DNA of 60,648 bases from an uncultured Pseudomonadales bacterium (GCA_964348455.1 CAYGCQ010000005.1:1-60648); one strand, 5' to 3'; shown: positions 27,853 to 54,624, numbered from the stretch's first letter. Program-made: numbers and translations. Notes: a model not told the origin generated them from the letters alone.

Positions 27853-29385
27853 TTACTTCAACAAGTACGGCAATATCTCGCCTGCTACAGGAGCAGCCAC
27901 TGCACTCCCCTGTCCTCCCTGCTCTATAAGCACTGTTATCACAATCCACTCCTTCACATCAGCTCCCTTCGGCACCACCACTGTCATCCAGGCATTGGGT
28001 AAAGTATCCTTTGCTCCAACCTGGGCCGTTCCGGTTTTACAGTATATTTTTCCTGCATACCCAAACAAAGGAAAAGCAGTCCCACCCGGACTACAAGCTC
28101 CAGCCATACCCTCAAGCACGGTCGCAACATTCTTAGGATTAAACTTCTGATCACCACAAGACACACTCCCTACAATCATCGGATCACAGCTTAAACCACT
28201 CACCGCTTCCGAGGTCATTCGATTTATCTGAATAGGAGTAGTCATAAGGTCCCCTTGACCAATTGAAAGATGATACGTATTACCCAAGAACCACCTCTCC
28301 CCCAAGGTCTTCTCTCTCCAGTAAGGTGTCGGCACAAATCCATCTGACTCACCAGGTAAATCAATCCCGGTCTTTTCGCCCAACCCAAATCTTTTTGTCC
28401 AGGATATCAGTGAATCTGCCCCCAAAGCTTCACCAATTTTATAAAAGAAAATATCGTTACTCCTAGACAAAGCACTTACAACATTAACCATTCCCTCTGT
28501 TCTGCTATATTGATCAAAATACCAGTTACCAAAGCGATACTCCCCTATCTTCAACTCTCCCGTATCTTGAATCTCCGTATTTTTATTAATTTTCCCCTCT
28601 TCCAATGCACCCATCGCAGGAACCAACTTATAAACCGACCCCGGCGCAAAATCTCCAGAAATAGCCCGGTTAAAAAGGGGCTTGCCATTTTCATCAATTA
28701 ACAAACTTTCAATATCTTTGTAGTCTCCACCAAAATCACTTCGCTTACCATTAGCGATAAATAAATTTGGGTCAAAGGAAGGTACACTGGCCAATGCCAA
28801 TACTTCACCATTTACTTTCGCAACTACAATAGCTCCACTTTTGCCTTCCTCCAAGTATTTACTTTTAAGTGCCATGTATGCTTCTTTCTGAAGTTCTAAA
28901 TCAATGTTCGTTTTCAAATTTTTACCAGGTACAGACTCCGTCTGAGTAATTATTTTCCTGGTCTTACCATCAGCAGTTTCCTGAACAACAGCTTCGCCCG
29001 GAAAGCCTACTAAATCATTTTGGTAACTCTTTTCTAAGCCCGCTTTCCCAAGTGTCATGATCGGATTACATCGGGAACAATCTTTTAAATCTTTTTCATT
29101 TGGTTTACCCAGATAACCGACTATAGGTGAAATTGTTTCACCACCCGGGTAAAACCGAATCGTCCTACCCAGATAATCGATGTTCATGGCTAAAGGCTTA
29201 CCATATCTATCGGTAATCACGCCACGAATAGGATCTAACTTTTCTTTCCTAATCATGTTGCCCTGAGCCAAATCCCCAAAATGATCCCCCATGACAGTAG
29301 TCAAGAAAAAAACCCTGGAAAAAACCATGGCCATTACGAGGACCAAGATCATCTTCGACCATGTGTACATTTCACCTTTCCTCAT
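27853..29385 (-). CDS. mrdA: penicillin-binding protein 2 (elongation transpeptidase)
   Basis: Transpeptidase motifs SVYK (SxxK), SRSN (SxN) and KTGTA (KTG). mre gene neighbourhood. Confidence 0.85.
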   Translation of the reverse strand: MRKGEMYTWSKMILVLVMAMVFSRVFFLTTVMGDHFGDLAQGNMIRKEKLDPIRGVITDRYGKPLAMNIDYLGRTIRFYPGGETISPIVGYLGKPNEKDLKDCSRCNPIMTLGKAGLEKSYQNDLVGFPGEAVVQETADGKTRKIITQTESVPGKNLKTNIDLELQKEAYMALKSKYLEEGKSGAIVVAKVNGEVLALASVPSFDPNLFIANGKRSDFGGDYKDIESLLIDENGKPLFNRAISGDFAPGSVYKLVPAMGALEEGKINKNTEIQDTGELKIGEYRFGNWYFDQYSRTEGMVNVVSALSRSNDIFFYKIGEALGADSLISWTKRFGLGEKTGIDLPGESDGFVPTPYWREKTLGERWFLGNTYHLSIGQGDLMTTPIQINRMTSEAVSGLSCDPMIVGSVSCGDQKFNPKNVATVLEGMAGACSPGGTAFPLFGYAGKIYCKTGTAQVGAKDTLPNAWMTVVVPKGADVKEWIVITVLIEQGGQGSAVAAPVAGEILPYLLK

Positions 29386-29409
29386 TTTTTCTTCATTCAG
29401 CTTTCACTA

Positions 29410-29494
29410 GTCATTCCTGGCTTGACCAGGAATCCATCAAATAAACACTACATTCAGTACTTACTGAATGGATCCCTGCCTTCGCAGGGATGAC
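29410..29494. repeat. family A MITE-like palindromic element, full intergenic copy
   Basis: gtcattcctgg .. cagggatgac terminal inverted repeats plus an internal palindrome cattcagtacttactgaatg. Confidence 0.8.
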
Positions 29495-29512
29495 AAGATG
29501 TGACACTGATAC

Positions 29513-29935
29513 TTAATAATTTAGTTTAATTGTTTCAGATTTTTCGAACCATCTTTCCGCTACACTCCATGACAGGATAACACCAAGAAACTCCCACCAA
29601 CTCCAGTTTAATCCAAACACTTTATCAAAAACAAAGTTGGCTAAAAGTGAAATGACCAGCATCACCCAACCGGTTTCCTTTCTCGAACTAAAAACGAAAG
29701 ACAATCCACCCGTTACAATCACCAAGAACAAAGCCGGAGGCCCTACAGGTATTCTGTAAATAGACGCTATCAGTAAACCAATTACAAAAGAAAGCCAGTA
29801 AATCCACCTCAGATCCAAAAGTATTAACAAAAACGGCCAGAAAATTCCAAGGCCCAAAACTCCCTCTCCGACAATCACAGAAACCAGTACTGCAACAACA
29901 GCTTTTATGATATTTTTCGATTGTTTATCAATCAT
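29513..29935 (-). CDS. small polytopic membrane protein, possible MreD
   Basis: 140 aa with 4-5 TM helices, positioned directly upstream of mrdA. Assignment by context only. Confidence 0.4.
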   Translation of the reverse strand: MIDKQSKNIIKAVVAVLVSVIVGEGVLGLGIFWPFLLILLDLRWIYWLSFVIGLLIASIYRIPVGPPALFLVIVTGGLSFVFSSRKETGWVMLVISLLANFVFDKVFGLNWSWWEFLGVILSWSVAERWFEKSETIKLNY

Positions 29936-30055
29936 AATAAGTAATATACAATCGTGATTATAAGAGGAAGCGCAGTCCGAAAGGACGAGAAAGCGACACC
30001 ATGTAGTGGATAGTGCCCTTGTGGTACTCTAATAATCTTTGATTGTCGGTCTAAC

Positions 30056-30826
30056 ATGAATACTTCAATAAAAATAAATCTAATTCTTCTTCCCTTACTG
30101 CTCTCGATTCTATTGTCTACGGCAGGAAAACTCAAGGCGGGAAAAAATATAGATAAATTATTTAATATTTTCTTCGCTCCTATTACCATTCCGGCTTCAC
30201 AGGCGCGCCTAATCGTCGAAAATAAATTTACCGAGATAAAAAATATTTCCGGACTCGAGAAGCTAAGTCACGATCAAAAAAATCAGATCGCTTCTTTGCT
30301 ATCGGAAAATGAGTATCTCAAACAAACTCTGCTGGATAAAAAGATTACCGAAAATCTGAAGAACTCTTTCAAAGAAATCATTCCTGTCCGATTATCCGGT
30401 TCTTCAGGAAAATTTATAGTCTCCTCGACGGCCTCGCTTGAAAATGTCAAACCAGGTCAACCACTCGTATCAGGCAACGTCTTACTCGGAACTGTTCTGG
30501 AAGTAAAAGGAACTGCCATTACCATCACCCCACTCGAGAGTGAAAAATCTCCATCGTTTCCTATCCGTACAGCTTCCGGTCAAAAAGGTTTTTATCACTA
30601 TGAAAGCAATCAGCCACTCATCAGTGACATTCCCAGTCAAAACCCAATTGTACTAGGTGACTTTATCTTTACCGAGCCGGGAGAGCTGTTTCCGGGTAAT
30701 CTTATAATCGGAAAAATTACTCGACTACTTACTATCAGTCAAGAGCCTCTCCAAAAAGCTGAGATTACTCTCTACGACTCACTAAATGGCAATCCCGACA
30801 ATCTCGCCATCATCACCTCCCCCTAG
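30056..30826 (+). CDS. mreC: rod shape-determining protein MreC-like
   Basis: N-terminal TM helix, coiled-coil segment (..ASLLSENEYLKQTL..), then beta-rich domain with G..V.G.VL.GTV..V-type strands. On the opposite strand to mreB/mrdA. Confidence 0.6.
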   Translation: MNTSIKINLILLPLLLSILLSTAGKLKAGKNIDKLFNIFFAPITIPASQARLIVENKFTEIKNISGLEKLSHDQKNQIASLLSENEYLKQTLLDKKITENLKNSFKEIIPVRLSGSSGKFIVSSTASLENVKPGQPLVSGNVLLGTVLEVKGTAITITPLESEKSPSFPIRTASGQKGFYHYESNQPLISDIPSQNPIVLGDFIFTEPGELFPGNLIIGKITRLLTISQEPLQKAEITLYDSLNGNPDNLAIITSP

Positions 30827-30882
30827 TTTTTCGCAAAAAAATCCCCCTCGAAAATTCGAGAGGGACAGCAATGATTTCAGAA

Positions 30883-31245
30883 CTATTGACCGAGCGGAGT
30901 CGCCTTCAAAATATTCCGGCTTTGTGATAACAAACCGAAGCGGAACCAGTTCACTTTGAAGTGATAGGTAGCTCCTTCATCGAGTGCGAAATAGTTCCGT
31001 GAATTGAACTTAAGAAACCATAAACTGTCAGCGTTATCAAACGTTTCATTTTCGCCAGTCTCCAGGTTCTTCACAACCACCATCGTGTCGTGGTTGAACT
31101 CGGGGACGTATCTGACCAATTGACCATCAAATTCTGTGACAGTCGCATAGTTGATAACTGGGTTAGCTATCACCAAAATCACGATAACAGCTAGGATTAT
31201 AAAGTACAAATTTTCAGCCAAAAAATTCAACAAACGGTATCCCAA
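30883..31245 (-). CDS. hypothetical membrane-anchored protein
   Basis: 120-aa ORF with an N-terminal TM helix, between mreB and mreC. Confidence 0.55.
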   Translation of the reverse strand: MGYRLLNFLAENLYFIILAVIVILVIANPVINYATVTEFDGQLVRYVPEFNHDTMVVVKNLETGENETFDNADSLWFLKFNSRNYFALDEGATYHFKVNWFRFGLLSQSRNILKATPLGQ

Positions 31246-31315
31246 GAAGCACCTCTTTCTAGATTGGATTAAAGTACATCATTATTATACCTTATAACAG
31301 CAAATATGACAAAAA

Positions 31316-32380
31316 CTACCTCAGTCCACCCACCACTTTTACTTTTCCTAGGAGCTTATCACTCTCCAACACCTTGGCACAGCCTCGAACTACCGCTTCG
31401 AGAGGTGTATCCGTCACCCACACCGGCATACCTATCTGTTCACTAATTAGTTTATCTATCCCTCGTATGAGCGAACCTCCGCCGGCCATGACCATTCCTT
31501 TTTCCAGAATATCAGCCACCAAATCAGGAGGCGTCTCCTCAATTATCAACGCAATTTCGCCCAATATCTGATTCACGATCGGCATCAAAGACTCACGAAT
31601 CTCAACACTATCCAACTTCAACGACTTCGGCAGACCGTCTTCCAAGCTACGACCTCGAACCACGATCTGCAACGGATTTCCTTCTTTTTCCCTTTTCATC
31701 GGATAAGCAGATCCTACTGCAATCTTTACCTCTTCGGCTGTACTTTCACCCAACAAAAGGTTGTACTTTAATCGAACAAAATTTTGTATCGATTCCGTCA
31801 ATTCATCCCCTGCCACCCGCAAACTTCGATTCAGGACTAAACCTCCTAAAGAGATAACACCTATCTCACTTGTCCCTCCCCCAATGTCACAGATTAGCTG
31901 ACCTTCAGCTTTCTCTACCGGCAGACCACTCCCAATCGCGGCTGCCATAGGCTCCTCAACAAGGAACACGGCTCTAGCTCCTGCCTCCAAAGCAGCTTCT
32001 TGCACAGCCCTTCTCTCTACCTCAGTCACACCACTTGGAATGCCGATAGCCACTCTCGGTCTGGGAATTTTGAAGCCAAGACCTTTGTATAGCTCATGGA
32101 CTTCCACAATATAGTGCTTCAGCATAGCCTCGGCAGCATCAAAATCGGCGATTACACCATCTCTTAGGGGTCTCACTACCTCGATATTGGCCGGATTCTT
32201 TCCAAGCATTTTCTTTGCCTCATCCCCCATCGCCAGGATCACTTTTGTCTTCATATTCCTCGCAACCACCGAAGGCTGTCGAATAACAACCCCTTTGCCT
32301 CGAACATGTACCACTACGTTAGCCGTGCCTAGATCTATGCCTACATCGAGCGTCGCGAGCCTCCAAAGTTTTTCAAACAT
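31316..32380 (-). CDS. mreB: rod shape-determining protein MreB
   Basis: Actin-fold motifs DLGTANV, ICDIGGGTSE and MAGGGSL. Confidence 0.95.
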   Translation of the reverse strand: MFEKLWRLATLDVGIDLGTANVVVHVRGKGVVIRQPSVVARNMKTKVILAMGDEAKKMLGKNPANIEVVRPLRDGVIADFDAAEAMLKHYIVEVHELYKGLGFKIPRPRVAIGIPSGVTEVERRAVQEAALEAGARAVFLVEEPMAAAIGSGLPVEKAEGQLICDIGGGTSEIGVISLGGLVLNRSLRVAGDELTESIQNFVRLKYNLLLGESTAEEVKIAVGSAYPMKREKEGNPLQIVVRGRSLEDGLPKSLKLDSVEIRESLMPIVNQILGEIALIIEETPPDLVADILEKGMVMAGGGSLIRGIDKLISEQIGMPVWVTDTPLEAVVRGCAKVLESDKLLGKVKVVGGLR

Positions 32381-32451: not shown

Positions 32452-32480
32452 TTGACAATATAAATTCATTTTCGTATAAT
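32452..32480 (+). promoter_or_regulatory. perfect consensus sigma70 promoter for tRNA-Thr
   Basis: TTGACA (32452-57), 17-nt spacer, TATAAT (32475-80), 18 nt upstream of the tRNA 5' end. Confidence 0.85.
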
Positions 32481-32498: not shown

Positions 32499-32570
32499 GC
32501 GTCCATAGCTCAGTGGCAGAGCACTCGCTTTGTAAGTGAGTTGTCAGGGGTTCGATTCCCTTTGGACGCT
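32499..32570 (+). tRNA. tRNA-Thr (anticodon UGU), CCA not encoded
   Basis: Manual cloverleaf: acceptor GCGTCCA/TGGACGC, D arm GCTC..GAGC, anticodon stem CTCGC/GTGAG with loop TTTGTAA, T arm AGGGG-TTCGATT-CCCTT. Confidence 0.85.
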
Positions 32571-32663
32571 CTCCCCGTTCAGTCAGCGCTGTTGACCCTT
32601 CCTCAAATATCAGGAATGTGGAGACAACTATTGCTTGCTGAACGGGTTTATTTCCAATACATA

Positions 32664-32691
32664 ATCCTCCGATATCTTCGGAGGATTTTTT
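32664..32691 (+). terminator. intrinsic terminator ending the tRNA-Thr transcript
   Basis: atcctccg-atatct-tcggaggat hairpin followed by T6. Confidence 0.8.
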
Positions 32692-32784: not shown

Positions 32785-33231
32785 ATGTCGACAAAACACC
32801 AAGAATCTCCCGGCGTACTTGCAGCCCTATACCAACTAGCCCAAAATAAAACTCTCAAAGCTCGTGGTAAAAAATCCGATTTTCGCAGCTCGGGAAGTAT
32901 TCAACTCTGGGCAAATGTTACTCGGCCTCTAAGCTCTATCGCTATTGTTTATACAGCGGGAACCAAAATTGTATTCGGAGTACTCCAAGCCCCACTTGAA
33001 GATGTAGGCCCCGAAAACGCAATTGCAGAAGGAATGACAGATTTAGGAAACAGTTTTTATGCCGACCCAGCGAAATCAATTTGGGCCGCCGCCTATATCC
33101 TCGCCAAGGACCTGGGAAAAGCCTACGACCCAACCAATACATTTACTCTCGAAGAGGGATTGGCGGCCTGGAAGTTCAAACAGGCTCAGTACAAGTACTA
33201 CACACCTCTTCTGGAGATTCAGCTTCCATAA
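32785..33231 (+). CDS. hypothetical protein
   Basis: 148-aa ORF with AAGGAGG 8 nt upstream of the ATG. Confidence 0.65.
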   Translation: MSTKHQESPGVLAALYQLAQNKTLKARGKKSDFRSSGSIQLWANVTRPLSSIAIVYTAGTKIVFGVLQAPLEDVGPENAIAEGMTDLGNSFYADPAKSIWAAAYILAKDLGKAYDPTNTFTLEEGLAAWKFKQAQYKYYTPLLEIQLP

Positions 33232-33300
33232 CTCACCAACCAGCCTCGCTTTAAATTGCGAGGCTTTTATTTTGGCGAGATTGCATAGTACAATTCACTC

Positions 33301-35289
33301 ATGCCGAGTGTGGAGCAGACAAATGATTATGAATCGCTAGAAAGAGCGCGAATAACTCAAGAAATAATTGATGATTCTTTTCCTACGACAATAAAAGACA
33401 AAATAATCAAAGAAAAACTAAGCAACACTATAATCGTCAAATCAATTGATGGCATTCTTGATGCAAAAATTGAGCTTACACCCAAAAACTTTCTGGGCAA
33501 AGGCCTATCAGGACTAGTGATGATTGGGAAAACAGAAAAGGGTCCAACTGCCTTCAAAATGTTTACTTCAAAAGATTCGGTCAGCAATGACTCCACGCAA
33601 ACAGAATACGACTCGGAAGTGGATATATTAAAAGGATTGGACCATCCAAACCTCGCATCCTTCTACGGAACAGCAGACGTTGAACTTACAAAAAGCTCTG
33701 TAATCAAAGTGATAGCAAGGGAATTAATTCCCATAGAATTTCGACGACTAAAGCTCAATGAAGCAGTCCAGATGTCCGAAGAAATTGCCAGTGTTCTTGA
33801 TTACATTAACGAGAAAAAAGGTGCAATTCTACCAGACTTAACTCCGGAAGGTATTCGTCAGAGAACTAACGGCTCCTGGGTCCTACTAGATGTCGGTCAT
33901 TCGGCAAAACCAAGTGAAGATCAGTCAAGAATAATTCAAATTGACGATATATATACCGCCCCTGAAGTTAAATTTGCAAAAGACGAAGATAGAAACAAGG
34001 CTGCCACTCCAGCCTCCGAGGTATTTAGCCTGGCACTGATTGTCTGGAAAGGCTTATCTGGGTCAGACTATGACCGTATTAACCCGGAGCAGATCTTTGA
34101 TGAAAAAATAGGTGAGTTCTCTCCACTTATTATCGATGTTCTCAAAAAAGCAACTTCTCGTGAGCCAGGCGATAGATATCAAACACCAACTGAATTTGCC
34201 GAAGCCCTAAGAAATGCAACAGCTGAACTAACAGCACCAGAACAGAAAGCAGAAGATCCCATTAGAGATCCTCGAGAATCTGGCGAATCTATCATCAGCC
34301 CAAAACTTAAAGATTTCTCCGGGAAATCTGTAGAAGAAGTTAGGAAGAGGGTAAAAAATATTTTGCCATATGTTATAGATATGACAGTTTTCCATGACCT
34401 CTCACCAACAGATGAAAGGAAAGGGCTAATCCCAACAGGCTCCATTGCTGAAATAGACACACTAGAACACAAGGATTGGTTGAAATTGCTAGGAGGCTCA
34501 GACATGGGATGTGGTATAGAGTTTGCAGCTCTCGAATCAACTATCAACATCGAAGATGCTCAAAATAAGTTAGATCAAATTAGCGACAAAGTCTCCAGTG
34601 GAGAACTGTCTCTTGGTGGAGGAAATCATTTTATCGATATCATGGAAGATTCCAACGGCAAATACTACGTCGCCATCCATACCGGTGCCCCTCGAGATGA
34701 ACAAGAAGAACTCAACCAAATCGTCGAACAAGCAAAGGAAGATGGGAATTGGGAAGAAGCTACAATAAAATACTTAGCAAAATATGATGAAATTATTAAG
34801 TCAGCAAATGATAACAGAGAAAAAATTCTCGCCGCAATTACTGAGGTTTATGGCAAATGTGACACGCTGTACCATGAACCACACAACACTATAGATATAA
34901 ATAAAGAAAAAAATACAGTCACTATTTATAAAGGAGCTGTCCACGTTACAGACACCAGAAAAAAACAGTTCATGCCAAGTTCCATGAACGAAGGTGCAGT
35001 CTTTTTTATACCTGGCCCAACCGTAGGCGAAAAAACACATTTTGGGGTTCCCCATGGCACAGGCAAGGCTCGATCAACCGGCGAACAAAGAGCGGATCCA
35101 AACCTTGATATTCATCCAAATATTATGCTTCCCACTTCAGCTGGTGGGGTAGTTTCAAGAGGTGTAGCTGAAGGTGCTTACAACACTTATGCCAAAGCCG
35201 AAGAAATCATGCTGAACTGTGGTATTGCAAGATATGAATCTGAAGAAGATATAGAAATATTCAAAACTGTTGCTCACATTAGAAGGTAA
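33301..35289 (+). CDS. fusion protein: N-terminal protein kinase-like domain plus C-terminal RtcB-like RNA ligase domain
   Basis: Kinase-like: GKGLSGLV (G-loop), AFKMF (Lys), ILPDLTPEGI (HRDLKPEN-like, Asp kept), LLDVGHS (DFG-like), TAPE. RtcB-like: GSDMGCGIEF, GGGNHFIDI, AIHTGAPRD, HNTI and VPHGTGKAR (HGAGR-like). Confidence 0.7.
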   Translation: MPSVEQTNDYESLERARITQEIIDDSFPTTIKDKIIKEKLSNTIIVKSIDGILDAKIELTPKNFLGKGLSGLVMIGKTEKGPTAFKMFTSKDSVSNDSTQTEYDSEVDILKGLDHPNLASFYGTADVELTKSSVIKVIARELIPIEFRRLKLNEAVQMSEEIASVLDYINEKKGAILPDLTPEGIRQRTNGSWVLLDVGHSAKPSEDQSRIIQIDDIYTAPEVKFAKDEDRNKAATPASEVFSLALIVWKGLSGSDYDRINPEQIFDEKIGEFSPLIIDVLKKATSREPGDRYQTPTEFAEALRNATAELTAPEQKAEDPIRDPRESGESIISPKLKDFSGKSVEEVRKRVKNILPYVIDMTVFHDLSPTDERKGLIPTGSIAEIDTLEHKDWLKLLGGSDMGCGIEFAALESTINIEDAQNKLDQISDKVSSGELSLGGGNHFIDIMEDSNGKYYVAIHTGAPRDEQEELNQIVEQAKEDGNWEEATIKYLAKYDEIIKSANDNREKILAAITEVYGKCDTLYHEPHNTIDINKEKNTVTIYKGAVHVTDTRKKQFMPSSMNEGAVFFIPGPTVGEKTHFGVPHGTGKARSTGEQRADPNLDIHPNIMLPTSAGGVVSRGVAEGAYNTYAKAEEIMLNCGIARYESEEDIEIFKTVAHIRR

Positions 35290-35312: not shown

Positions 35313-37358
35313 ATGTCGTCTGCGTCCAAAAGAACCAAAATAATTCAAGAGACTATTCAAAAACCCGCCACTTTTATTCAGTACTGTTTCTACGCCCTTT
35401 TCTTCATCACCCCACTTCTCCTCTGGCCTTTTACTTCCGAAGTTTTCGAATTCAACAAAATGATGTTTGTCTATGCAATGACCATCATCATAGCTGCCGG
35501 CTGGGCAGTCCGCTCGATCCAGCAGAAAAAATTCGAAATCGCCCGAACACCGCTTGACTTTCCCCTACTAATTTTTCTTTCCTCTCAAGTTATCTCTACA
35601 GTTATATCTATTGATAGACATACCAGTCTCTGGGGCTACTACTCTCGCTTTCACGGCGGTTTAGTTTCCACTTTCTGTTACGTAATCCTTTTTTACGCTC
35701 TAGTCACCCACTTTTCCGGACAAGGTAAAGCAATTCGCAATCTGATAAAAACTATTCTGGTTACCGCAGCTATTACCTCTTTTTATGCCATCTTGGAAAA
35801 AATGGGTGTCGACAAGCACATCTGGGTCCAAGATGTGCAGAACCGTGTCTTCTCTACCCTCGGTCAACCAAACTGGCTCTCGGCATATCTCATTGCCCTT
35901 CTTCCCATCTCCCTCTTTGCAGCAGTTAACACCAAGAGTATTAACTCCAGATTTGCCCACATTGCTCTGGCTACACTTTATCTACTGGCCATCTTCTTCA
36001 CGAAGTCTCAATCCGGCATAGGCGCAACAGCTATCGTTCTGCTCCTCTTCACCATAATAATAGCTGTCCAGAAGAAACAATCAAAAATCCTTATCGGCCT
36101 TGCAGTACTTATTGCATCTCTTGTGATAATTAAAAGCAGTGCAGTCAAACAAACACTCACCTCACTTAATAAGATTAACCCCTTCTTCTCAAACAGTCTG
36201 ACTATAGTTACAGAAGAAAACAAAACACGTATCGGAGGATCAGACTCCATGGCAATTCGTCGAATAGTCTGGGGCGGTGCTCTCGAGCTAGGCAAAAAAT
36301 ACCCCTTCTTCGGAACTGGAGTTGAAACCTTTGGCTACACATATTACTGGGTCCGTCCGGCAGTACACAACCTTACATCTGAGTCAGACTTCCTCTACAA
36401 CAAAGCCCACAATGAGTACCTAAACTTCCTAGCCAACACCGGTTTTATCGGTCTCTTCGCCTACCTCTTTCTAATCATTTCCATACTTCGGATATTCACA
36501 CCTCGTCATTCCCGACCTGATCAGGAATCTATACAAGTAAATTCCGCTGAACTTTCCACCCCTCTCCTCCTAGGCTTCATCAGCATTCTGATTACCAATT
36601 ATTTTGGTTTTTCGGTTGTCAATGTCGCCCTTTTCTTCTTCCTATTTCCGGCAATCTATCTATCTGCAATCAACCAATCGGGAACTTCTGTTCGAAAAAT
36701 TAATGTAAATGATGTCGTCGGTATCGGAGTAATCTTTCTTATGGCCACATGGCTTGTGTTCGGAATTAGAAAAATGTGGTTAGCTGACCTGGCTTTTACC
36801 GCCGGTAGAAGTAATCTTTCAGAAGATTTAAAAGCCATACAACTTAACCCCAGAGAACCTTTGTACTACGCCCAACTCGGAAACGTTCAATCTTTGGTCG
36901 CCGTTCAAATTATTGCTCCTCAGATCCAAGAAATGACGGCTACTACTCCGGCAGAACTTAGAGACAAAGGTAATGCCTATCTCAAACAATACACAAATGA
37001 TTCAATAAACAATATTTCCAAAGCAGTGCAGATGAATAAATACAACTTAAATTTACTAAAAATAAAAGCTCGCACAGAACTGACTCTTGGCTCATTGGAC
37101 CCTAAATATAATCGCGATGCTATAAATACACTCCTAAAGATAACAGAGCTCTCCCCAACAGAAGCTACCAACTACTATAACATTGGGGTCCTCTACACAA
37201 ACCTCGCTCAGACCGCATTAGAAACAAAAGCTCCTGGAGGTGGTTCAGAGTCTAGGTCAGAGCTAGAGTCTGCCAAACTAGCCTTTCAGAAAGCTATAGA
37301 TCTCAAACCAGACTACGAGGCAGCCAAAGACAAACTTAAGCTGTTGGAAAATAATTAA
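35313..37358 (+). CDS. O-antigen ligase-like (Wzy_C) polytopic membrane protein with C-terminal TPR repeats
   Basis: About 12 TM helices, the NKAHNEYLNFLANTGFIGL motif typical of O-antigen ligase/Wzy_C, TPR-like C-terminus. Contains an in-frame family A half-element (RHSRPDQESIQ). Confidence 0.75.
   Translation: MSSASKRTKIIQETIQKPATFIQYCFYALFFITPLLLWPFTSEVFEFNKMMFVYAMTIIIAAGWAVRSIQQKKFEIARTPLDFPLLIFLSSQVISTVISIDRHTSLWGYYSRFHGGLVSTFCYVILFYALVTHFSGQGKAIRNLIKTILVTAAITSFYAILEKMGVDKHIWVQDVQNRVFSTLGQPNWLSAYLIALLPISLFAAVNTKSINSRFAHIALATLYLLAIFFTKSQSGIGATAIVLLLFTIIIAVQKKQSKILIGLAVLIASLVIIKSSAVKQTLTSLNKINPFFSNSLTIVTEENKTRIGGSDSMAIRRIVWGGALELGKKYPFFGTGVETFGYTYYWVRPAVHNLTSESDFLYNKAHNEYLNFLANTGFIGLFAYLFLIISILRIFTPRHSRPDQESIQVNSAELSTPLLLGFISILITNYFGFSVVNVALFFFLFPAIYLSAINQSGTSVRKINVNDVVGIGVIFLMATWLVFGIRKMWLADLAFTAGRSNLSEDLKAIQLNPREPLYYAQLGNVQSLVAVQIIAPQIQEMTATTPAELRDKGNAYLKQYTNDSINNISKAVQMNKYNLNLLKIKARTELTLGSLDPKYNRDAINTLLKITELSPTEATNYYNIGVLYTNLAQTALETKAPGGGSESRSELESAKLAFQKAIDLKPDYEAAKDKLKLLENN
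36505..36545. repeat. family A palindromic element, half copy inside a CDS
   Basis: gtcattcccgacctgatcaggaatc followed by tatacaagtaaattcc (compare catcaaataaattcc at 13890). Confidence 0.6.
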
Positions 37359-54548: not shown

Positions 54549-54624
54549 TGGAGCCGGGAGCGGGAATCGAACCCACGACATCATGTTTACAAAACATGCG
54601 CTCTACCAACTGAGCTATCCCGGC
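54549..54624 (-). tRNA. tRNA-Thr (anticodon UGU), CCA encoded
   Basis: Reverse complement GCCGGGATAGCTCAGTTGGTAGAGCGCATGTTTTGTAAACATGATGTCGTGGGTTCGATTCCCGCTCCCGGCTCCA folds as a cloverleaf. It is the only tRNA here with a genomic CCA. Confidence 0.85.

Follow-up and report, generated by a model that had tools for sequence, protein, structure and literature searches.

An open reading frame (ORF) of 662 amino acids at positions 33301–35289 (plus strand, stop codon included) of a 60,648-nucleotide stretch of DNA from an uncultured Pseudomonadales bacterium (GCA_964348455.1, CAYGCQ010000005.1:1-60648; hereafter the window) joins a eukaryotic-type protein kinase (ePK) domain to a complete, compact RtcB-like RNA ligase module. 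Upstream lies the gene of a small conserved protein, which we call X, and in related lineages the same three elements recur as a rare cassette in which kinase and RtcB-like protein are either fused or encoded by adjacent genes, with a conserved signal between the X and kinase genes. RtcB and ePK kinases are each familiar; the novelty lies in their covalent or operonic coupling, in the minimal RtcB clade and in an X partner with receptor-like variants. We hypothesize, tentatively and with slightly less than even confidence, that the cassette encodes a GTP-dependent 3'-phosphate/5'-hydroxyl (5'-OH) ligase gated by its kinase and by X.

The ORF begins with ATG and contains no internal stop codon. 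An N-terminal extension (amino acids 1–61; 33301–33483, plus strand), partly kept across the cassette kinases, precedes the kinase domain (amino acids 62 to about 304; 33484–34212, plus strand), which was delimited by Pfam and by residue alignment. An acidic linker (amino acids 305–331; 34213–34293, plus strand), disordered in the structural model and carrying seven Asp/Glu against three Lys/Arg in amino acids 305–329, leads into the RtcB-like module (amino acids 332–662; 34294–35286, plus strand), as defined by profile, model and Foldseek. An earlier reading of this DNA made from the sequence only (the sequence-only reading) had proposed a single ORF fusing a kinase-like domain to an RtcB-like domain of roughly 300 residues. 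Pfam, the kinase alignment, a profile of 31 family sequences and Foldseek all bear out the two-domain architecture; the RtcB half proved longer, a complete module of about 331–342 amino acids.

A search of 5.8 billion proteins returned a sole full-length homolog, P0002 (671 amino acids, on contig L001), which comes from an unrelated sequencing run. It carries the same fusion and is 40% identical to the window protein over 96% of the length (33% in the kinase region and 52% in the RtcB-like region), with a linker that is partly alignable. A sequencing or assembly error that merged two neighboring genes, a concern already voiced in the sequence-only reading, would be in keeping with the split genes of closely related lineages, where the gap is only 1–9 nucleotides. 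We nevertheless consider such a join very unlikely, and the fusion of a kinase-type with an RtcB-like domain to be genuine, because an independent, 40%-identical homolog found in a different sample shows the same fusion and has a linker that can be aligned; the window linker, moreover, runs through about 25 in-frame codons without a stop.

Homology of the C-terminal half to RtcB is firm despite a sub-threshold Pfam score. The Pfam RtcB family (PF01139) matched amino acids 420–595 over profile positions 129–359 of 426, scoring 23.0 bits for the whole protein (E = 5e-5) and 25.8 bits for the C-terminal half (E = 8e-6), both under the 27-bit gathering cut-off, which the close relatives P0009 (49 bits) and P0010 (47 bits) exceed. 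Pfam on its own thus upheld the kinase assignment of the sequence-only reading, Pkinase scoring above its cut-off, and stopped just short of the gathering score for RtcB. Profile searches, on which that reading had let both homologies depend, support the RtcB half as well: the 31-sequence family profile matched, among the structures of the PDB, the RtcB of T. thermophilus (E = 2.7e-30), P. horikoshii (about 2e-29) and human (9e-17). This depth of alignment was needed, as a two-sequence profile of the RtcB half did not find RtcB in the PDB.

When the RtcB-like halves were searched exhaustively with HMMER against 1.84 billion cluster representatives, 239 matches were obtained at E ≤ 1e-3, 16 of them at E ≤ 1e-30. 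The best were stand-alone proteins of about 350 amino acids that align end to end with the query profile (P0008, 524 bits; P0009, 342 bits; P0010, 253 bits), and for this reason amino acids ~321–662 represent an entire compact RtcB-like protein and not a fragment. An AlphaFold2 model of amino acids 321–662, built from the 31-sequence alignment, reached a pLDDT of 91.0 and a pTM of 0.90, with disorder confined to residues 321–331; a full-length model from a two-sequence alignment (pLDDT 32.7) was unusable. When the former was compared with the PDB by Foldseek, the top 14 matches were all RtcB (E from 3.7e-14 to 1.5e-8, probability 1.00, TMq 0.58–0.70), and the fifteenth had E = 0.058. The nearest named subfamilies in NCBIfam were PRK09588 and TIGR03073 (release_rtcB); scores of 25–63 bits against cut-offs of 272–407, and of 23–26 bits for TIGR03073 against 271.8, place the module outside both.

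Active-site residues were mapped by aligning the 31-sequence profile to P. horikoshii RtcB (PhRtcB, PH1602). The motifs picked out in the sequence-only reading sit where it had placed them: GSDMGCGIEF at amino acids 399–408 (34495–34524), GGGNHFIDI from 34615, and the histidine region at 35053, which is the codon of His585. PhRtcB Asp65 corresponds to Asp366 of the window protein, and the metal ligands Asp95, Cys98, His203, His234 and His329 correspond to Asp401, Cys404, His443, His460 and His528. Asn202-His203-Phe204 align with Asn442-His443-Phe444, Glu206 with Asp446, Tyr451 with Tyr627, and the guanylyl-histidine His404 with His585; Arg506, Asn529 (directly after His528) and Lys544 are further noted residues of the module. 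We take Phe204, Glu206 and Tyr451 of PhRtcB (Phe444, Asp446 and Tyr627 in the window) to be residues of the GMP/guanine pocket. Nine positions, namely Asp401, Cys404, His443, His460, His528, His585, Asn442, Phe444 and Tyr627, are invariant in 31 of 31 family members. Asp446, which stands in place of Glu206, is Asp in 25 of the 31, and the motif around His585 reads HGTGK where the canonical form is HGxGR; the final residue, Lys here, is Arg in 29 of the 31. In PhRtcB, one Mn2+ is bound by Cys98, His234 and His329 and the other by Asp95, Cys98 and His203, and His404 bears GMP (PMC10630183); Asn202 touches the 5'-OH nucleophile (PMC8051266). Since the metal, GMP-histidine and Asn202 positions are invariant throughout the family, the module has very probably kept the capacity to guanylylate its histidine and to activate a phosphate.

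In relatives, the two domains are encoded by neighboring genes. P0009 was found on two independent contigs (L083 from JGI and L084 from ENA), directly after a separate gene for a 298-amino-acid Pkinase protein, with a stop-to-start gap of 1 nucleotide; this kinase is 29% identical to the kinase half of the window protein (E = 6e-25). The closest RtcB-like relatives, P0008 and P0160 (69–71% identity to the window module), likewise have their kinase encoded by a separate gene. On L173, a 316-amino-acid kinase ends 3 nucleotides before the RtcB-like ATG, and on L082 the C-terminal fragment of a kinase ends 9 nucleotides before the RtcB-like start. Fused forms were seen in the window and L001 only, and the window linker corresponds to the C-terminal tail of the kinase plus the N-terminal tail of the RtcB-like protein of the split versions. 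The occurrence of the pair as a fusion in two loci and as separate genes 1–9 nucleotides apart elsewhere argues for a functional linkage: in a classical Rosetta-stone relationship, kinase and RtcB-like protein would work together, and loss of a stop codon would have merged them in the window and L001. No other kinase fusion was present among the 150 best of the 239 RtcB-like matches, and literature searches, which did not cover the RNA-repair survey of Burroughs and Aravind, found no kinase–RtcB fusion or operon. The architecture thus appears to be undescribed, as the sequence-only reading had supposed.

In the window, X is a stand-alone protein of 148 amino acids (32785–33231, plus strand), with an AAGGAGG Shine-Dalgarno sequence 8 nucleotides upstream of its gene. 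Previously set down as an orphan, it turned out to be a conserved component of the cassette, homologous to the C-terminal domain of the protein encoded upstream of the kinase in relatives. It is 37% identical to the C-terminal domain of the 343-amino-acid upstream protein of L001 (E = 4e-32), 52% identical to the upstream proteins of L083 and L084 (499 and 508 amino acids; E = 2e-50), 35% identical to that of L173 (360 amino acids; E = 2e-18) and 76% identical to the stand-alone, 148-amino-acid protein of L171. Wherever the flanking sequence suffices, kinase-bearing loci encode the X-domain directly upstream of the kinase, and the X-domain also adjoins kinase-less, more distant compact RtcB-like genes (L086, L087 and L172). 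As a control, X-domain and kinase profiles were run against all ORFs of 173 DNA records (2.57 Mb), including about 160 neighborhoods of canonical RtcB genes from GTDB and IMG/VR. The X-domain was absent around the ~160 canonical genes and confined to compact RtcB-like loci; the kinase profile gave two weak generic matches outside the cassettes. Because X pairs with kinase-less compact genes too and is absent near canonical RtcBs, we read the pairing of X with compact RtcB as the core association and the kinase as an addition in one clade.

The long forms of X comprise a signal peptide or lipoprotein signal, an ectodomain, one transmembrane helix and then the X-domain, a topology that would therefore place X in the cytoplasm. 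The hydrophobic helix is unambiguous in L173 and L084 and borderline in L001, and the ectodomain of the L083 form contains an NBR1-type immunoglobulin domain (Pfam, 9.5e-15). In the window and L171, X consists of the soluble domain alone. No relatives of X were found in Pfam, NCBIfam, PADLOC or the PDB: seven X-domains gave no Pfam match at E ≤ 10, and a PDB profile search gave no relevant match. Word-indexed homology searches returned P0158 and P0159 only. The pair Gly37-Ser38 is invariant, Ser38 being the only invariant hydroxyl residue of the domain.

Some compact RtcB-like genes have other neighbors. P0013 (L168 2617–3857; L169 1231–2471) is an exception to the X pairing, as no X-domain was found in its 4.1-kb contig; its gene is followed by conserved ORFs of 101 and 310 amino acids and the locus adjoins a putative alanyl-tRNA synthetase, recognized by eye from its N-terminal sequence. 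The 310-amino-acid protein on L168, which looked by eye like a divergent kinase, was dismissed as such after an hhalign probability of 0.5% and no match in the PDB or Pfam. On L085 (2100–2738) and L086 (1268–2278), the gene just downstream of a kinase-less compact RtcB-like gene encodes proteins that are 31% identical to each other (E = 1.6e-21). These proteins, L085_213 and L086_336, matched nothing in Pfam or the PDB, and a reading of them by eye as methyltransferase-like found no support.

The Pfam Pkinase family (PF00069) matched amino acids 62–281 of the window protein with E = 1.3e-11 and 44.8 bits, against a gathering cut-off of 31.7. Alignment to solved kinases, such as CIPK24 (4d28), confirmed the placement of the landmarks in the sequence-only reading: Gly66-x-Gly68, Lys86, Asp179, Asp197 and TAPE. 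The segment ILPDLTPEGI aligns with HRDLKPEN (Asp179), LLDVG with DFG (Asp197) and TAPE with APE; the αC glutamate Glu106 and DRYQ, corresponding to the subdomain XI DRY, can be added to the list. Five cassette kinases were compared, those of the window, P0002/L001, L083 and L173 and an N-terminal fragment in L171. All five have the G-loop glycines and the β3 lysine, Lys86, and the four that cover the positions of Glu106 and the catalytic Asp179 retain both. The DFG position is acidic in each of the four full-length kinases, being Asp in the window (Asp197-Val-Gly) and Glu in the other three. That Lys86, Glu106, Asp179 and the acidic DFG residue are retained at ~30% identity suggests that nucleotide binding, and probably catalysis too, has been under selection. 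Sequence change is much faster in the kinase than in the ligase, with 28–33% against 39–69% identity across lineages. Its best named matches were PD-T4-6 (54.5 bits), mad6 and MkoA in PADLOC and MADS6 in NCBIfam (E = 4.7e-10). All PADLOC matches of the fusion protein fall within the kinase region (up to amino acid 331), and the scores lie far below family level (MADS6, 38.6 bits against a cut-off of 460; PglW, 18 against 990). Membership in a defense-kinase system was accordingly rejected, the PADLOC matches being generic kinase similarity.

The gap between the X and kinase genes carries the same arrangement in five loci (window 33242–33294; L171 460–532; L001 1212–1295; L083 4271–4355; L173 1735–1817): a GC-rich hairpin with a U-run, followed by a -10-like box. 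In the window, an intrinsic-terminator hairpin of 8 bp with a U-run follows the X gene (33242–33265, plus strand), at a position kept in all five, and ATAGTACAAT (33285–33294, plus strand) brings its -10-like box, TACAAT, to exactly 6 nucleotides before the fusion ATG. L001, L083 and L173 share ATAGTACAAT with the window, L171 has the variant CTAGTACAAT, and the spacing from TACAAT to ATG is always 6 nucleotides. The terminator hairpins have folding z-scores of −4.3 to −6.5 (four loci tested), and the intergenic signal is far better conserved than the flanking proteins, which are only 30–50% identical. Judged by its spacing, this layout suggests a terminator for X and then a -10 box that would give a leaderless kinase(-RtcB) mRNA.

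Upstream of X, the strongly promoted tRNA-Thr noted in the sequence-only reading is real. A sigma-70 consensus promoter, TTGACA-17-TATAAT with 12 of 12 matches (32452–32480, plus strand), drives tRNA-Thr(UGU) (32499–32571, plus strand; CCA not encoded) together with a trailing structured RNA of about 75 nucleotides (32572–32650, plus strand), which starts directly after the tRNA and folds into a rod-like hairpin; a terminator-like hairpin with a T-run ends the unit (32663–32687, plus strand). An 80%-identical copy of the small RNA occurs in L001 (3505–3581), following a tRNA-Arg(UCG)/tRNA-Arg(GCG) pair that lies shortly after the fused gene. Both copies form the same rod-like hairpin (minimum free energies −31.5 and −32.4 kcal/mol, z −4.6 and −3.6 in the window and L001, respectively), and the apical stem differs in sequence between them with its pairing kept. 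The small RNA matched no Rfam family. A search for more copies in the window and in the remaining cassette contigs, which are short, gave none, and whether the RNA belongs with the cassette is uncertain. tRNA genes flank the fused gene in L001 as well. A second tRNA-Thr(UGU) is located at 54549–54624 (minus strand) of the window, and the acceptor stems of the two differ clearly, GCGTCCA in the cassette copy versus GCCGGGA.

The wider neighborhood is an ordinary bacterial chromosome segment, with no obvious mobile or defense island: PBP2, MreC and MreB are encoded upstream (27853–32380), and a Wzy_C+TPR protein, peptide deformylase (Def) and formyltransferase (Fmt) downstream. Cell-envelope genes, to which Wzy also belongs, recur beside compact RtcB-like genes, with a MurG-like gene (by eye) in L172 (2–1087) and an LD-carboxypeptidase gene in L085 (2–988), a recurrence that may be coincidence in small genomes. 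The window Wzy_C+TPR gene (35313–37358) is 71–79% identical, over its N-terminal 61–127 amino acids, to the corresponding genes of L083 (6315–6497) and L084 (4862–5242); this identity marks L083 and L084 as the equivalent chromosomal site of a related organism, carrying a far more divergent cassette. Within the cassette, identities are incongruent. The window and L173 share 69% in the RtcB-like module, 35% in X and 28% in the kinase; with L083 the values are 39%, 52% and 29%. This pattern, drawn from a small sample and a short flanking comparison, suggests fast evolution or module exchange inside the cassette.

The family was encountered in raw metagenome assemblies only. None of eight members looked up was present in NCBI or UniRef, and none is named. 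The pattern LGGGNHFI, common to the window protein and P0002, retrieved only canonical RtcBs from 185,579 GTDB species representatives; identity was 22–35%, with one 41-residue segment at 54%, and none matched the kinase half. Scans of IMG/VR likewise gave canonical RtcBs only, with neither X nor cassette relatives, and scans of metagenome contigs with the fusion alignment and the X alignment returned no relative. Other fusions of RtcB were seen on canonical RtcBs only and involve guanylate kinase, leucine-rich repeats (LRR) and inteins. P0137 joins guanylate kinase to a canonical RtcB, which fits a local GTP supply, P0132 joins a BspA-type LRR to RtcB, and six RtcBs (P0028, P0041, P0042, P0051, P0056 and P0087) have an unidentified N-terminal extension of ~100–240 amino acids.

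In the mechanism that we propose, the C-terminal module would be a GTP- and Mn2+-dependent RtcB-type enzyme that guanylylates His585; the His585-bound GMP would be passed to a 3'-phosphate end, which would then be sealed to a 5'-OH. The kinase domain, covalent here and translationally coupled elsewhere, would be a regulatory partner rather than an end healer, turning ligation on or off through phosphorylation of the ligase or of X, or through nucleotide-dependent association. X would most likely be a sensor or adaptor that relays an envelope-side cue to the kinase-ligase, because in relatives it forms the cytoplasmic tail of a protein with a signal peptide, ectodomain and transmembrane helix. 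The suggestion of the sequence-only reading that the kinase could regulate repair is plausible in this light and has precedent in phospho-control of RtcB: c-Abl phosphorylates the human enzyme RTCB, PTP1B reverses the modification, and substrate trapping with a tyrosine phosphatase captured an archaeal RtcB (PMC10630183, PMC5007285). Phosphorylation of human RTCB at Tyr475 was predicted by structural modeling to block GTP binding (PMC10630183), and by numbering offset (+24 from PhRtcB) this residue corresponds to the invariant Tyr627 of the window.

Several observations weigh against this mechanism. Arg190, Gln194 and Arg238, through which PhRtcB contacts the 5'-OH strand (PMC8051266), are poorly conserved among compact RtcBs: only 8 of 31 members have Arg at the Arg238 position (Pro464 in the window, with Arg465 adjacent), and the Arg190 position, Lys430 in the window, is variable. 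As these arginines are poorly kept and PhRtcB residues ~128–190 and the segment after His234 are missing, the substrate or its mode of binding may differ from canonical RNA ends. All cassette kinases have lost the His-Arg of HRD (LPD, VAD, IVD, PID), and the Mg2+-binding Asn of the catalytic loop, present in P0002, L083 and L173, is Gly184 in the window, whose kinase could be weak or a pseudokinase. The terminator and promoter-like box part X from the kinase gene, so that these two genes are not strictly one operon, and the sensor or adaptor role suggested for X draws on topology and adjacency for a domain that has no recognizable fold or family. No gene for RtcA, RtcR, PrfH or a ribonuclease is among the neighboring ORFs scanned (27.8–41.2 kb), and the comparison draws on a small sample, some five lineages with a kinase, every one of them on short metagenome contigs.

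The same kinase features invite the explanation that the domain is a dead or weak pseudokinase, a nucleotide-binding or dimerization scaffold that serves the ligase without phosphotransfer. RNase domains are served in this manner by the (pseudo)kinase parts of RNase L and IRE1, and loss of the HRD His-Arg throughout, the change of Asn to Gly in the window, that of the DFG Asp to Glu in the other three lineages and the much faster evolution of the kinase than of the ligase would all fit. We regard it as unlikely, since Lys86, Glu106, Asp179 and an acidic DFG residue persist at ~30% identity, as selection on catalysis predicts. If the kinase is active, its phosphate might itself be the substrate: it would install a phosphate, with Ser38 of X as the candidate target, and the RtcB-like module would activate the phospho-ester with GMP and join it to a hydroxyl, the product being a protein–RNA or other phosphodiester conjugate and not an RNA–RNA junction. 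Such a scheme would explain the constant company of a protein kinase, a phosphate-dependent ligase and a small conserved protein with an invariant Gly37-Ser38, and also why a family with invariant metal, GMP and histidine chemistry does not keep the contacts made by Arg190 and Arg238 of PhRtcB. It is nonetheless pure conjecture, we know of no RtcB that acts on a phosphoprotein, and the invariant Asn442, a contact to the 5'-OH, is what a nucleic-acid nucleophile would lead one to expect. Kinase-less compact genes, moreover, still pair with X (L086, L087 and L172), where another source of phosphate would be needed. For these reasons we consider the scheme quite unlikely.

Less probable again is a conflict module, of the defense or toxin–antidote kind, in which the kinase would be the effector or sensor of a system directed against phages or ribotoxins and the RtcB-like ligase would mend RNA cuts made by the cell itself or by its enemy. 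The best named kinase matches are indeed defense kinases, X and kinase diverge fast and the modules are incongruent beside a Wzy gene that is 71–79% identical, and RtcB2–PrfH, a known anti-colicin repair module, offers a precedent (PMC9223846, PMC9304027). Against this stand the generic kinase scores, far below family cut-offs (38.6 against 460), the lack of a PADLOC match for X and for the RtcB-like half (P0009), the housekeeping neighbors (MreB, MreC, PBP2, Wzy, Def and Fmt), among which no nuclease partner was seen, and the absence of relatives in IMG/VR. Finally, the sequence-only reading had also offered the kinase fold as a polynucleotide kinase-like partner that heals RNA ends for the ligase. 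For this, the one argument is analogy to the kinase–ligase fusions Trl1 and Pnkp. The domain is of the ePK type, with protein-kinase landmarks such as APE and the subdomain XI DRY, and we know of no polynucleotide kinase with an ePK fold. The ends that RtcB seals are a 3'-phosphate or 2',3'-cyclic phosphate and a 5'-OH (PMC8051266), so that 5'-phosphorylation would destroy its substrate and block ligation; the proposal conflicts with RtcB chemistry and is highly improbable.

Our preferred mechanism, a ligase gated by kinase and X, can be carried one step further. A single-pass membrane protein with a variable ectodomain would present X to the kinase and minimal RtcB, so that a cue from the envelope or from outside the cell would control covalent joining; this would form a hitherto unrecognized prokaryotic pathway from a transmembrane signal to RNA ligation, or else the cassette would embody an RtcB chemistry on phosphoproteins. 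The joined target would be RNA, possibly the tRNA-trailing small RNA found beside both fused genes, or a kinase-installed phospho-ester on X. We put this extended version forward as a rather improbable one. Beyond the Rtc operon and RtcB2–PrfH, the substrates and control of bacterial RtcBs are largely open, and here a minimal, catalytically complete RtcB has repeatedly become tied to a protein kinase and to a small domain that hangs from a membrane receptor in relatives. The cassette is thus a tangible system in which post-translational or signal control of bacterial RNA sealing can be tested. If the kinase does supply the phosphate that the RtcB-like module activates, RtcB chemistry would extend beyond nucleic-acid ends. 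The compact RtcB of ~330 amino acids also defines a smaller conserved core than that of the solved RtcBs, which is of use in enzymology and engineering. Curated databases do not reveal the family, and surveys of the InterPro kind would miss the cassette.

Canonical RtcBs (PH1602, E. coli RtcB and human RTCB; PF01139) share with the window module the fold, the two-metal ligand set, the guanylyl-histidine and Asn202, with Asp here at the position of Glu206. In contrast to them, the window module is some 130–150 residues smaller (~331 amino acids versus 481 in P. horikoshii), lacks roughly PhRtcB residues 128–190 and the segment after His234, and has Ser in place of PhRtcB His67. It is also fused or coupled to a kinase, paired with X, poor in the arginines of the 5'-OH strand and below the Pfam gathering score. 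Short RtcBs are known from RtcB2–PrfH, PRK09588 and TIGR03073, whose profiles span 356–379 positions, and RtcB2 is likewise a paralog with a dedicated partner (PMC9304027). The cassette differs in having no PrfH or release-factor homolog among the neighbors scanned, its partners being the kinase and the X-domain, and it differs from the Rtc operon (RtcR–RtcA–RtcB) in that neither RtcA nor RtcR is among the ORFs scanned at 27.8–41.2 kb.

Archease is an activator of RtcB, about 140–150 amino acids long and often encoded next to it. X resembles it in being small (~148 amino acids) and consistently located beside an RtcB-type gene; unlike Archease, to which it has no sequence similarity (PF01951 and solved structures), X also occurs as the tail of membrane proteins. 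Fungal and plant Trl1 and bacterial Pnkp–Hen1 likewise combine kinase and ligase in one polypeptide or operon for RNA repair. Their kinases are P-loop polynucleotide 5'-kinases that serve ATP-dependent ligases of 5'-phosphate ends, whereas the kinase here is of the ePK type and the ligase needs a 5'-OH, so their logic is not transferable. The likeness to defense kinases (PD-T4-6, Mad6 of MADS and PglW of BREX) is a generic one at the level of the kinase, and the other components of those systems are not present. Closest in functional outline is the metazoan IRE1–RTCB axis with c-Abl and PTP1B, which unites a transmembrane sensor, a kinase and RtcB in one phospho-tuned, cut-and-seal pathway (PMC10630183, PMC8899846). 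The kinase of IRE1 is fused to an RNase and not to the ligase, and no RNase was found in the cassette, so the parallel is one of functional analogy only. Should the transmembrane-signal version of our mechanism hold, the cassette would represent a functional bacterial counterpart of the IRE1–RtcB axis, or a new phosphoprotein chemistry of RtcB.

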